DNA of 62,912 nt, counting the filler, from Rhabdomonas costata (Eukaryota), in NCBI GenBank assembly GCA_019059605.1. It is 30 parts of 30 records of this genome, joined end to end, with 100 filler letters (N's around TTAATTAATTAA, not from the genome) between each part and the next. Parts side by side here need not be neighbours in the genome. Positions count along the whole stretch, not along the records: positions 18,918 to 20,918 come from JAHMHO010006548.1; 29 more parts are not named here. One strand, written 5' to 3'. Under the pieces are notes generated by a model. It saw only the letters and a list, made by a program, of their open reading frames with translations. It was not told where the DNA came from and did no database searches. Positions within the stretch are counted from its first letter, which is position 1. Every line of letters starts with the position of its first letter. Shown here piece by piece: positions 16,528 to 22,378 of the stretch. The position numbers were made by a program, and so were the translations under genes.

Positions 16528-17298
16528 AGGACATGAGGGACAGAACCCCAGGATTACAAGATGTACTGCGGTGGGAGGCCACAGCCCACAAAAAAAATGC
16601 CCACAACATTCGCAAGTAGGGAAGAGGTGACGCGCCACGAGCTCGTGTAGAAATCCTCCCGAGAACAGGCGCGCCAAACGGGGGCAATCGAGGGAAAGAC
16701 TTGCGCTGGTAAACAGNNNNNNNNNNNNNNNNNNNNNNNNNNNNNNNNNNNNNNNNNNNNTTAATTAATTAANNNNNNNNNNNNNNNNNNNNNNNNNNNN
16801 NNNNNNNNNNNNNNNNTTTTGTCGAGACTGTTATGGACGGTGAATACCATGGAGCTCGAGAAGCTCAATGAGATGTTGCTTTTCAGGTGTTCAACGTCAA
16901 CAAGTGAGATTCAGGGATCGAAATGAGCACAGTGAAATCAGGGGCGAATAAGGGGACGTCTGTTTGAGGAAGCACGGATGGGCGTGAGCTAGCATGGACC
17001 CAGGCTGTGCCGAAGCGTCGCATCTTGGCTTTTTTGCATTCGATTTCGACTTTGCCACCAACAGGGCAAATACGCAAGAATGCACAAGTGGTTGAGCAAG
17101 GCTGGTGCGGCTTGAGGTGATAGCATTTGGGTATGCACAATCAATGAGACCATTCCCGTAATAGCATTCGCGCAGCGCCACTCTTGAACACCCCGCAAAG
17201 TTCCCACGTTCCGCTTTGAACTCTTCCGCGCACATGAAACGCCACTTCTTTCCAGATTTCCCCACCGACGGCGGCGAGGGGGGGGGGCAGACAGGCAC

Positions 17299-18139
17299 CT
17301 TCCGTTGAGGCCCATGTACTCGTGGCCGTAGGTGAAGGTCCCCGTGCACTGGCGGATGAGGCAGTTATCCGCAGTACGGTCCCAGTAGAACCGGAGCTGG
17401 CTCTCCCACTCGAACTCCCGGGGGTCCATCACGCTGTCCCTCACAAAGCGGTCCACGATGTCCCTGGCGTGCACGTCGATGATGATCATCGTGTTGACCT
17501 TCTTGCGGAACTTCTTCTCGATGGGCTTGTCCATCTCCCCGACCAGGTCGTTGAGCTGCCGCGTCAGCTTCATGGCGAGCTCCTACGAACCGAGTACCAC
17601 CCTTACCAAACGTCTGCAGGGTCGGGAAGGTATTCTCTTGAAGGCAATGATCCCGCTCCATGAATTCGAAATACCTTGCCACTGCTGAGAAACCAAAAGA
17701 GAGAGAGAGAGATCCACAGTCAGGGGCTACCCACGTCACAAATCCCTGTTGTCAACCCTTGCACAGCCCTCCTTTAGAACTTTCTCTGTGTGTGTGTGTG
17801 TGTGTGTCTCCGCCTCTGCGCTTATATCTTGGTATCCTCACGAACGGTTAGCATTTCTGTTCGGTTTTGGGAGCGGGACACCTTGACGGCCTGCTTCTTG
17901 CCCTGCTTGACCTTGCGGAAGGCGTCCTCAACCTGGAAGGTCCACCAAATGCTGGAGCCGCAGCACGCCACCATGCCGTGATACTTCTGGATCCACTCCA
18001 GGCGGTCCGAGCGGGGGTAGAAGAAGGTCCCCTCCTTCAGGATCCTTCGCAGGGTCTTCATCGACTCCCCCAGCACCACCGTCAGCCACTTCTCCACCGG
18101 CGCGTTCTCCGCAGAGACCGGGGTCAAGAAGGTGAGTAC
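17299..18139 (-). CDS. DNAH10: Axonemal dynein heavy chain, DNAH10/I1-alpha-like (exons 18139-17882, 17582-17299)
   Basis: VEKWL...SIWWTFQVEDAF...RKKVNTMIIIDVHARDIVDRFVRDSVMDPREFEWESQLRFYWD...FTYGHEYMGLNGR, the linker just before AAA1. The subtype is less certain than the family. Confidence 0.92.
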
Positions 18140-19831
18140 CTGGCAAGGTGTGAGAAAAGCAGAGGAAAACCCCCGACTTAGCATCTTTAACCATTCTTTT
18201 TTTTGAGGTGGTGGTGGGGGTAAACGTTATAATCCCGTTACTCGTACTAGCATCGCCACGTAGGACCGAAATCTACCTCCAGCAACAACCCCGCCACAGC
18301 CGCCCGCTCCGAACAACCTGCCCTACTTGCAAGCAAAAGCCCAGCAAGGCATCAGTTCTCATCAATTATGGTAACCAACGAGAAAGACCCGGAAAGGCGG
18401 AAAATCCATGAACGCCGCAATACGTTATTTTGTATACGGTATGACGCTGTTATACAGTATAACCACGGCAAACCGTTTGACGCCCCCCCCCCCCACCTCC
18501 AAAGAAAATAGACCGGACCGGTATCTTTGGTGAGCTGTTGCCTCATTCCTCATTGCGACGCACTGACGAGGGCTAAGCCCAAGCAGGCCTGGGGTCTTTT
18601 GCATATACCGTTGACTCCTGAGCCGCTTATCAGCTGCATTGTCGATTTTGAAGTCAACGGAGGTACACTTTGGCGGACGCGTGATCTTCCTCGGCACCCT
18701 TGCATGCACGGTAACGTAAGGGAAGGGTCCTTTTACTCAAGGAAGAAGCCCAACGCACCTGAGAGCCCTTTGCTGTGCAGCCTTGTGACGACGGTGCACA
18801 AAGCCATCACCACAACANNNNNNNNNNNNNNNNNNNNNNNNNNNNNNNNNNNNNNNNNNNNTTAATTAATTAANNNNNNNNNNNNNNNNNNNNNNNNNNN
18901 NNNNNNNNNNNNNNNNNGGTGGTGGGTCATCTGGGTGAAAAAAATCGATCTCTCGAAATTCGGTCTTTGCTGTTTCGTTGGCCTCAACGGGGGTATTTGA
19001 AAAAAACCCCAGAAAACCATGTGGCACCGAAGCTCAAATATTTTCGTAAACCATGCCACGCCGAAGGGTCCGCTTTATCGAAGCATCTTTGGTAGGGCCC
19101 TGCGCGCTGGGCCCATACTTGCGTACGAAGAAATGGCAATGAGATGGCAATTTAGATTGCAGATTGAAAGTGCCTGATCAGTTTCCAATTTAAGGGGGGT
19201 GGTCTTGGTGACCGAATCCCTCCCACCCTTCCACAAGATATTTTTGTTTTGGGTCCTCTCCGCCTCAGACGTCTCCGCCCCCCAGTCTTTTGACTTAACG
19301 CTTCAAAAGCACAGGCACGCCTAGCACCATTCGCCAAGAAGGTTCACTCTTCGAGCGATAGGCGAGCCCACTCCCGTGGCGTAGGTGTCGATGTTCCGCC
19401 AGCTTGCCTCAGCCTCGCTGCTGCGAATGGCTGCGAATGTGTGAGGCAACATTTTGAGTCTTGGCACTGCCGCCACCGCGGGTTCACTCTTGGACAACGA
19501 ATAAAGAAGAAGCCCACGGCGTGACATTTTTGTGTTAGTTTTCCAATTCTGCTCTTTTTTGAGAAATTAGTGAAGTCGGGCTGTCCTGGAACGTTCCCAA
19601 AATGAGATTTCATTGTGAGCGAGCTCCGCAATGTCATTTTGATTGGTTATTATTGCAATTGGTTCAAACAAGTTTGAGAACGAAAAAAATAAGCATCCAA
19701 TAGTTTCCACATCATTCAGCAGCTGACAAAACTCGATTTAAAAAGGGGCCCATGACTGTTGAAAAAATGGACAAAAATTGGAGTTCTTGCATACAAGTCC
19801 TCTCTCGTTCCCGTTTCCCCCCTGTTATGAT

Positions 19832-19871
19832 GGGGTCTCAAGGAGAGTTTCGGGTCTCAAGGAGAGTTTCG
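19832..19871. repeat. Short tandem duplication (gggtctcaaggagagtttc x2)
   Basis: Seen directly. Confidence 0.8.
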
Positions 19872-20374
19872 AAAATATTCAACTTCCACTCGCAATGACC
19901 ATATTTCCCCCCTTATTTTCGACTATTTTTGCCCTTTTGGGGGCCCATTTTGCCTGGTTTTGCCCTACTTTAGGGTATTTTTCACTCCAAGTGATGCTCG
20001 AGTCCCCCCATACAGTGATTAAGGAGTCCGAAACCTTGATGGCAGAATGTCCCATCGGGACTTGCGCCTCGCTGGCCTAAATATTGCCCAGTCAGAAAAG
20101 GGAGCACCGAGTTTCAGAATTATTGTCCACTTCAAAGCCCCTTTTTATTTTTTAATTTTGTCAGCTCTTCCGCGTGGCTACTCAGACCCTTTTGGGAATT
20201 GGTGAAGCCCGTGAGGCCTCTCGGCGAGAGGGTGCCGATTCTGCACTTTCGACTTGTCGTGGCACCAATTTTGCACCAATTTTCTACTTTCCACTTTGTC
20301 TTGCGCAGGTCTTTTCAATCTTCTGCCTTTGGAGAGCACTCAGTTGCCCAGGTGTAAGTACCTCTCTCGACAAA

Positions 20375-20914
20375 ATGAAGAGGTTGCCTACCTTAGGGCT
20401 GCTTCTTTGGGCGATGGTCCTTGGCTGCCAAGGCCTCGTCCACCATCGAAGCCATGAGCTGGGCTTTCATCCCACGGTGCTTGGGGAGAGCGACGAGCTG
20501 GTGGTGGTGGTGCAGGCCAACCCCTCGACGGGGTATGGGTGGGAGCCCCACTTCGACGACCGCGTGATCGCGCACAAGAGCTCGTCGTGCGTGTACGCGC
20601 GCAACGACATCGTCGGGCAGCCGTGCGACCTGAAGCTTTGGTTTGTGGGGGCTTCGGTGAAGAGCTCGACGAACCTGACGCTGCACTACCGGCGGTCCTG
20701 GGAGAAGGCTGCTCCGCTGCGCACGGTGAGCATGCCGGTGACCTCGCTGAGGCCGTACCGCGGCACCCGGGATTTCGCGCCAGCCCAGGCCCCTGCGCAG
20801 TTCTCGCCCAACATCACCCGCTCGCAGTCCGGGCACCCTTTTGTGGCTCCCCAGGCGTACCCCTCGGTTTACGACCCCCGGACGACCACGGGCTTCCCTC
20901 CTATTAAGAACCAG
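20375..20914 (+). CDS. Signal peptide + chagasin (I42) inhibitor domain + start of a papain-family (C1A) protease domain; first exon
   Basis: MKRLPTLGLLLWAMVLGCQG signal; chagasin loops NPSTGYGW, IVGQP and YRRSWE; then YPSVYDPR...FPPIKNQ|gt, which matches the mature papain N-terminus (LPxxxDWR...TPVKNQG). Confidence 0.8.
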
Positions 20915-22378
20915 GTGTNNNNNNNNNNNNNNNNNNNNNNNNNNNNNNNNNNNNNNNNNNNNTTAATTAATTAANNNNNNNNNNNNNNNNNNNNNNNNNN
21001 NNNNNNNNNNNNNNNNNNGGTGGTTTCCCAAGAACCTTCCCCCAGTATAGGCAGGAAAACGCGAGCAAACCCACACCACACAAACAGTTGAAGACCAACC
21101 TGAACAAGACTTTGCTCGCGCTTTCCTGCCTATACTGGGGGAAGGTTCTTGGGAAACCACCAGGAATATGCCGTTCGAAGGATTCCAGCATGTCAACGTT
21201 GAGCTCTTTCTGTGAGAGCAGCCGGATCGGGGGCTCGGGGTGCTCACTTGCGCATCGCTATTGTGCAATGTCTCAACGGTCATATGCGATTCACGCCAGA
21301 GAGGAGGGAGAAACAGGAGAGAGCAAAGAACAAGCAAGAAGCTGCGAAGTCTCCTCTGCTTTAGACATGCTGCATCATCGCCTGGCATCGCTGGTGCCCT
21401 AAAACTTACCTGGACTCGAAGAGCTGGATGGCCTGCAGATGGGCCAAGTCATACACCGTCGGGGCATAGGGATCCGCCGGAAAGTAGTCCACCACAACCG
21501 TGCGGCCGGGGTAGTCCACCGTCTGCTGCTACAGAAGCACGCAGTATCAACCGCAAGTGCAACAAACCAGTTGCTGGGTTATTGGTTTGAGTGAGTGGGA
21601 CAGGTATACAACAAATCGGCTCAGCCAATGACGCCACGAAACGCACAAAGCTTGTGGACCCCAGAAAAGGATCGTAGCGATTTCCACACTGCCCTGCATC
21701 TTGTCGCTATCCAATGAGATGGTCAATAGCAAAAGAAAGCGACACCCAAGGGCAAACAGCGCTGCGGCAGCGGTGGCCTGCTCGACACGTACATCACGCG
21801 TAAACTCAGAACACACGCTCGGTAGCATGAGTACGTCTGACACGCACAGGTGCCAGCCCATCGGCATTTCAAAACGCCCCAAGGACTTCAACTGAAAACT
21901 CGTAACATGCTTAAATCGGCGCTTCGGCTTCGGGGTGTAACTAACCTTACCACCACAAAAAGGATGGGCACGGCAAACCATACACAAACGTCAAACACGC
22001 GACTACTACAAGGCGCCACACCGTATTGTTTGAAGTCGCCCGCCCCGTCCCCAGACAGCCGAGCAGGGTCAGAACGAACAACCCCCAGCGCACCACGCAA
22101 ACCCGGAAGCAAGGGGTCTCCTCCATCAGCTCAAAAGTGCATCAAAGATCAACAAACTACTGAAGAGGAACGGAGAAAGCTGCAGTCCTCGAAACAGACA
22201 CCTTCTGGGTGCTTCTTTTTTACGTCCTCAGATGTCCATCTGAGAAAGGGGAATTCAGAAGACGCTGTCTCCTTCGCTGGTGTGTTCAAAGTTACAGCAG
22301 TGAACGTGAACCGCTAACGCAACTTTGATTGAATTTGGGCACCATGCATTTTGAACACATTCACTCACTACACACCAC

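Follow-up and report, generated by a model that had tools for sequence, protein, structure and literature searches.

The stretch of DNA analysed here (the window; 62,912 nucleotides, filler included) came from the genome assembly of Rhabdomonas costata (GCA_019059605.1) and was a chain of unlinked contigs of about 2 kb, in which positions 18918-20918 corresponded to contig JAHMHO010006548.1 (C6548). At the right-hand end of this contig we found an exon (20375-20914, plus strand) that was a single open frame of 180 codons running from ATG to CAG; the contig ended directly after it with GTGT. The original prediction described it as the beginning of a secreted protein in which a chagasin-like inhibitor domain (family I42) was fused to a papain-family protease (C1A). 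The layout claimed for the exon, namely a signal peptide, a chagasin domain, a Pro/Ala linker, the segment YPSVYDPR...PPIKNQ, and a GT donor, was borne out by the open frame, by Pfam, and by the motif positions (NPSTGYGW at residues 49-56, IVGQP at 79-83, YRRSWE at 105-110, YPSVYDPR at 162-169, and PPIKNQ at 175-180). The N-terminus showed a hydropathy peak at residues ~4-20 and a helix at residues 5-16 in the AlphaFold model, and its hydrophobic character was conserved among the paralogues. At the other end of the exon, Pro163 and Gln180 were nearly invariant in an alignment of 47 proteins; Pro163 was presumably equivalent to Pro2 of papain.

Residues 40-114 matched Pfam Inhibitor_I42 (PF09394) with 37.8 bits (cut-off 27.2, E 2.4e-9), and the best sequence matches of the exon in the PDB were the P. 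aeruginosa-type ICP 2WGN and amoebiasin-2. In the AlphaFold model, the predicted local distance difference test score (pLDDT) was 92-98 across residues 21-130. The top 10 Foldseek matches of this model were all ICP or chagasin structures, including EhICP2 (E 6e-12; 23% identity in the structure alignment) and T. cruzi chagasin (2nnr, E 1e-6; 11%). The YRG segment was ordered in the model even without an enzyme and therefore belonged to the immunoglobulin-like (Ig) domain. The domain also contained a Cys72/Cys84 pair that was typical of the euglenid copies. Its loop L2 was canonical in length and had the NPTTG-type motif (NPSTG); according to the part of PMC2607524 used here, the T31S change in L2 of chagasin is near neutral for cathepsin L.

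The catalytic cysteine had been expected past the contig end. Accordingly, C6548 stopped 4 nucleotides into the intron, and the Cys exon was present on the near-identical contig C14723. The exon had 23 matches in the genome, spread over 19 contigs, several of which led into the catalytic half. Namely, C14723 was 100% identical to the last 79 nucleotides at this locus and then continued via GT-AG introns into the ANCGSCWAFATVG...SEQ and YLTSC...GCG exons, its Cys exon reading ANCGSCWAF. C20451 had an entire first exon (58% identical) and an ACGACWAF Cys exon on a single contig, and C24148 carried the linker end with the Cys exon and overlapped the I42 contig C19568. C81162 had 127 nucleotides in common with C6548 at 99% and a different intron; therefore, C6548 ended where near-identical copies diverged. 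At one synonymous site, four contigs carried CCT, CCC, or CCG and thus represented at least three sequence variants. The first intron was at an identical phase-0 site in all eight loci read, and the donor right after the [ND]Q codon was GT in seven of them and GC in one. The GC-type start belonged to the family copy L010 (C64206). Further downstream, the catalytic domain was spread over at least five exons separated by GT-AG introns; the Cys exon matched 15 contigs (9 were read) and the middle exon matched 10, and on C673 the Cys, His, and Asn exons stood in order before a C-terminal extension exon.

The evidence for splicing was provided by proteins from EukProt. When exon 1 alone was the query, none of 397 candidates was a longer relative; this was weak evidence and was overturned when a profile of seven first exons was searched against 1.84 billion proteins: its top matches were proteins labelled Rhabdomonas costata in EukProt. 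That these proteins represented this genome was illustrated by P0004, which was 100% identical over 105 residues to one of its exons. P0086 contained residues 121-180 of our exon with two substitutions, and its sequence then went on across the splice junction to the Cys region. P0003 (745 residues) and P0007 (786 residues) were complete, and P0005 (380 residues) lacked its end only; all three had I42-like and Peptidase_C1 domains, each with Cys, His, and Asn. The Gln/Cys/His/Asn set was found in order in P0003, P0005, P0007, and C673, and C6548 itself held only the Gln (Gln180). The family is predicted to be proteolytically active. Thus, the I42-C1A fusion was confirmed by single contigs spanning the intron (C20451, C14723, and C24148) and by spliced R. 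costata proteins; it was evident for the family and for the near-identical copies, and it was strongly indicated for C6548 itself. The downstream exon had been expected to encode a C1A domain with G-x-CGSCW and the His/Asn motifs. The domain with its Cys was there, as were His and Asn in the paralogues, while the motif read A-N-CGSCW, one residue off.

Table 1. Features of the I42-C1A exon and its flanks on contig C6548, given as positions in the window
Feature	Positions	Strand	Basis
Polypyrimidine tract ending AG, probable splice acceptor	20280..20308	+	Sequence; inferred, upstream of ATG
Signal peptide, residues 1-20	20375..20434	+	Hydropathy, model helix, paralogue conservation; cleavage site inferred
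Chagasin/I42 Ig-like domain, residues 21-135 (Pfam core 40-114 = 20492-20716)	20435..20779	+	Pfam, AlphaFold, Foldseek
Loop L2 NPSTGY (chagasin NPTTGF)	20519..20536	+	Motif search; PMC2607524 (in part)
Loop L4 IVGQPC	20609..20626	+	Departs from GXGG; EhICP2 MVGFP, bacterial fusions mostly GAP
Loop L6 YRRSWE	20687..20704	+	Arg107 and Trp109 retained, Pro replaced by Ser; PMC2607524 (in part)
Post-domain motif RPYRGTRDF, of the [YF]xG type common to bacterial I42-C1A fusions	20750..20776	+	Motif counts
Variable Pro/Ala/Ser-rich linker, predicted flexible	20780..20857	+	Low pLDDT, unconserved among paralogues
Papain-family (C1A) N-terminus to oxyanion-hole Gln180	20858..20914	+	47-protein alignment; continuation in P0086 and C14723
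Phase-0 5' splice donor GTGT at the contig end	20915..20918	+	GT or GC after the [ND]Q codon in the eight family loci read

Upstream of the gene, at 19900-20165, there was a dispersed repeat of ~265 bp; of the 40 genome matches scored for it, about 30 had an identity of 71-93%. Another contig, not linked to C6548, contained exons that appeared dynein-heavy-chain-like (16989-18226, minus strand); no Pfam match there exceeded the cut-off.

The claim that an I29-type prodomain was absent also held. No ERFNIN- or GNFD-like motif was present in residues 21-162, and PF08246 had no match in the exon or in P0003, P0005, and P0007; elsewhere in the R. costata genome there was one match to an I29 gene. 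In the family copies of the protease type, the S/T-G-Y and R-x-W elements of the chagasin loops were retained. The distance between the L6 Trp and the oxyanion-hole Gln was counted in 34 of 110 C1A proteins, those in which both loops were matched by pattern. It was 60-82 residues in 33 of the 34 (an outlier of 281 residues was kept) and 71 in our exon, which is the kind of constraint expected for a tether reaching round the enzyme. Moreover, the model of P0005 was a compact two-domain unit (pLDDT 86.4) with a predicted template modelling score (pTM) of 0.84, compared with about 0.55 by our own estimate for two independently placed domains of such sizes; therefore, the model held the domains in some fixed pose. 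Linker residues 141-160 had a pLDDT of 58-64, varied among the paralogues, and were the likely zone of activation cleavage. Thus, the self-inhibited zymogen that had been proposed received indirect support from the spacing, the compact paralogue model, and the loops kept in protease-type copies. Most likely, the I42 domain acts as the propeptide, and it would presumably bind within the active site. Once released, the domain may also inhibit other proteases in trans, as the original prediction proposed.

A possible sequence of events is as follows. After removal of the signal peptide, the tethered chagasin domain would fold back onto its own C1A domain, and loops L2, L4, and L6 would plug the active site, doing the job of an I29 propeptide. 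Cleavage of the loose linker immediately ahead of Tyr162-Pro163 would start activation. The tight-binding I42 domain would then probably be degraded or released by pH, and the enzyme would act extracellularly or within a digestive compartment. The gene itself may have been acquired from a bacterium as a finished fusion, with introns and further copies arising later. It is plausible that the multiplied family digests external protein, since R. costata is described as a primary osmotroph in the part of PMC8219788 that we used.

The architecture was mainly prokaryotic. In the search with P0003 (residues 1-410), 11 of the 13 non-self matches, the 11 best, had both PF09394 and PF00112; with P0005, both domains were present in 47 of the 90 non-self matches, including the best 28. 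None of these double-domain matches came from EukProt; the best ones came from metagenomes or bacteria, the named ones were bacterial, and most had no name. Likewise, no other eukaryote with I42-C1A was among the matches of P0003 and P0005 (8000 candidates scored in each search). The identity of the euglenid fusions to any bacterial protein was 30-41%, and the exon-1 profile found no metagenomic relative above 41% among the best 80 of 238. In GTDB, at least 565 of the 606 candidate stretches encoded a relative, and I42 was in the same open reading frame (ORF) in 39 of the best 78 loci, mostly of Chloroflexota; on viral contigs, I42 was in none of the 79 C1A ORFs. The ESM Atlas returned generic papain clusters only (0.82-0.83, below the trust level). 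No solved structure with both domains was among the best 60 of 175 and the top 50 matches, and the solved papain-family zymogens among the structure matches all used other pro-regions. We found no paper on an I42-C1A fusion in the open literature, subscription reviews and MEROPS pages being outside this search.

Several signatures connected the euglenid proteins with the prokaryotic fusions. A GxxxHDY-type signature in the C1A domain was present in 4/4 euglenid and 45/78 prokaryotic proteins and in 0/80 viral or plant ones, and the euglenid catalytic domains scored higher on the profile of the prokaryotic I42 group than on that of the eukaryote type (190 versus 153 bits for P0007). Directly after the Ig domain, the [YF]xG motif occurred in 28 of 83 fusions, including all three euglenid ones, versus 3 of 58 I42 domains without C1A. 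In the trees, a branch with 100/98 support separated the eukaryote-type cathepsins, and the euglenid proteins, which formed one clade (support 99-100), were on its prokaryote side. Horizontal transfer, which the original prediction had made conditional on a mainly prokaryotic distribution, was therefore the most likely origin, although the trees did not nest the euglenid proteins. The transfer of a ready-made fusion from bacteria would be the most economical and a highly probable reading, because of the shared architecture and signatures more than the topology.

In the R. costata genome, I42-C1A had expanded into a gene family whose versions included intact, frameshifted, stand-alone, and lipase-fused ones. 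L021 (C2357) and L019 (C73680) were pseudogene-like copies of exon 1 with frameshifts, and they had a 5' untranslated region in common with the gene in the window. P0012 was a stand-alone chagasin-like protein of 150 residues with intact loops. On C3844 (L331/L341), there was a tandem pair of stand-alone chagasin-like genes with altered L4 and L6, ending soon after a PY[RK] motif. L020 (C1950, 2545..2, minus strand) encoded a signal peptide and a chagasin-like domain with 23.5 bits in Pfam, under the cut-off. This exon was joined via a 207-nucleotide GT-AG intron to class-3 lipase-like exons with GHSLAG (Lipase_3 E 0.005, under the cut-off); the module was 42% identical to that in the window and had lost all three loops. 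C1950 also contained an internal duplication of 126 bp that included an N and was probably an artefact of assembly.

Among the protease copies, L072 (C495, 3141-3233, minus strand) had a Cys exon reading CWGCWAF and no third exon in ~3 kb downstream, and it was possibly a broken copy. C-terminal extension exons of ~90 residues with a G-x-P/S-Y-Y motif were found at the last exon of C673 (L053) and at L064, L082, L083, and L089; such exons stood in tandem on C2095 and had no Pfam match over the threshold. The hydrophobic tail of P0003 may be a membrane or glycosylphosphatidylinositol anchor signal. On other contigs, L024, L025, L028, L031, L038, L039, and L048 were intron-less short C1A genes of a prokaryote-like or giant-virus-like type, several without the usual Trp after the catalytic Cys; they were possibly endogenised or contaminating DNA.

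The I42 domain could instead be an appended module and not a lock. It could assist folding, mediate targeting or binding, or inhibit the papain-type proteases of competitors or predators, with the enzyme itself active. We considered this unlikely, although the loops gave it some ground. All three chagasin loops were at the sites claimed for them and L2 was canonical, whereas L4 (GQPC) and L6 (RSW) were off the consensus, which in the part of PMC2607524 used here is a hydrophobic pair followed by GXGG for L4 and RPW/F for L6. L4 was IV-GQPC without GXGG, and the strict motif was also absent in EhICP2 (MVGFP) and in most bacterial fusions (GAP in 51/104). L6 kept Arg and Trp and lost Pro, RSW occurring in 5/104 prokaryotic fusions and RPW in 76/104, and position 108 varied among the paralogues (P, S, H, N, L, R); the same part of PMC2607524 has P92 of chagasin contacting the enzyme. 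These departures weighed against a lock, and so did two other facts: a picomolar-type inhibitor would stay after a cut in the linker alone, its release needing an extra step, and the I42-lipase control was one gene inferred from DNA alone. Additionally, the same module stood alone (P0012, C3844) and on a lipase, so other uses were possible, and I42 was missing from half of the related prokaryotic C1A proteins. On the other hand, the tight lower bound on the Trp-Gln spacing, the compact P0005 model, the lack of an I29 motif to act instead, and the loss of the loops where the partner was a lipase and not a protease all argued for a lock. It was more doubtful still that the C6548 copy was a degenerating or incomplete duplicate, or an assembly-level allele, without a working protease. 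The contig end in the intron and the frameshifted exon 1 on C2357 and C73680 would agree with this, as would the at least four near-identical exon-1 ends versus three near-identical exon-2 copies. The purifying signal between the C6548 exon and C42802 was weak (7 synonymous and 5 non-synonymous codon changes in 145), which counted against the main reading. C6548 also differed from C14723 and C81162 at one synonymous site and had its own second exon off the contig, so that its exact downstream partner was only presumed. However, its ORF, signal peptide, motifs, and donor were intact, the GC content at its third codon positions was 0.84 versus 0.48 GC upstream, and EukProt held the near-identical spliced protein P0086.

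The origin from bacteria was weighed in a similar way. It was improbable, in our opinion, that the fusion was old and vertically inherited, or that euglenids built it independently from a C1A gene and a chagasin acquired on its own, even though the phylogeny left room for it. The euglenid clade had a long stem branch and stood beside, not within, the sampled prokaryotes in three trees, and the approximately unbiased test did not reject its grouping with eukaryote-type cathepsins (p 0.5); the [YF]xG motif was found in only a third of the fusions. All these points spoke against a transfer. The eukaryotic sampling consisted of viral-borne cathepsins and one plant protein. Namely, the tested tree included 26 of the 78 GTDB loci (every third), 5 database fusions, and 22 eukaryote-type and 5 prokaryote-type rows from viral contigs, and the first tree was a quick one from domain windows of fixed length in which two euglenid rows were partial. 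In favour of the transfer, no other eukaryote was among the matches, and the catalytic signature, the linker motif, and the spacing were common with the bacterial fusions. Since the nearest relatives were bacterial, contamination of the protist assembly was also considered. It was effectively ruled out by the GT-AG introns, with at least five catalytic exons; the spliced products and the identity of only 30-41% to bacterial proteins pointed in the same direction. Kordis and Turk (2023; PMC10380794) described five bacteria-to-eukaryote transfers, none of them euglenid. The part of that paper used here does not mention chagasin, I42, or euglenids and says that its analysis left out the multidomain C1A proteins of prokaryotes; 3,965 characters of its supplement were searched, and fuller supplementary lists may bear on the transfers.

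Taken together, it was probable that the C6548 exon was the first exon of a multi-exon, spliced R. costata gene for a secreted papain-family cysteine protease that would be locked in cis by its own I42 domain and would have come ready-fused from bacteria. A wider proposal, to which we gave slightly less than even credence, was that chagasin is a genuine propeptide and defines a separate class of papain-family zymogen control, widely used by bacteria and imported, intron-split, and expanded as a secreted digestive family in one eukaryotic lineage. There the module would also have been reused, both as a free-standing inhibitor whose loops are intact and as the front domain of a lipase, with degenerate loops, so that one genome would show a natural gradation from propeptide through free inhibitor to inert scaffold. 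I42 and C1A are each textbook families, and their union was undescribed in the literature searched: the architecture was plentiful in public, bacterial sequence data, apparently unstudied, and here intron-bearing and expanded in one eukaryote. If the lock is true, it would explain a large unstudied bacterial family and pose a biochemical question, namely how a tight-binding inhibitor is shed. The eukaryotic occurrence would add a bacteria-to-euglenid transfer outside the five cases in the part of PMC10380794 used here, and it suggests how extracellular protein digestion may work in an osmotrophic euglenid.

Among the known systems, the prokaryotic I42-C1A fusions were the most similar. They were found foremost in Chloroflexota/Anaerolineae and also in Myxococcota, Bacteroidota, and Thermodesulfobacteriota, and their JGI labels included 'C1A family cysteine protease/predicted secreted protein'. 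The euglenid genes had the same domain order, 60-82 spacing, catalytic signature, [YF]xG motif, and secretion signal, and similarly varied C-terminal add-ons. However, they were intron-split nuclear genes in multiple copies with other C-terminal extensions, and they had YDPR instead of FNWC at the mature N-terminus, the Cys pair, and GQPC at L4. With chagasin, ICP, and amoebiasin (MEROPS I42; 2NNR, 2NQD, 3M86, 2WGN), the euglenid domain shared the fold, L2, and the Arg and Trp of L6, but it differed in L4 and the L6 proline and was covalently joined to a protease. The described chagasins are free-standing inhibitors acting in trans in the parts of PMC2607524 and PMC7863939 used here, and in the corresponding parts of PMC7863939, PMC2784779, PMC5014320, and PMC8219788 chagasins are separate inhibitors or a fusion is not mentioned. 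Like the cathepsin L-type I29 zymogens (such as pro-rhodesain 7AVM), the euglenid proteins had a signal peptide, an N-terminal region that would be inhibitory, and a C1A domain; unlike them, their pro-region was all-beta and Ig-like, not helical, and had no ERFNIN/GNFD. The nearest eukaryotic parallel was cathepsin F, where, according to the part of PMC7549167 used here, a fold of an inhibitor family (cystatin-like) is also N-terminal to C1A. Cathepsin F retains an L-like propeptide behind its cystatin-like domain, whereas in the euglenid proteins the inhibitor domain replaces the propeptide.
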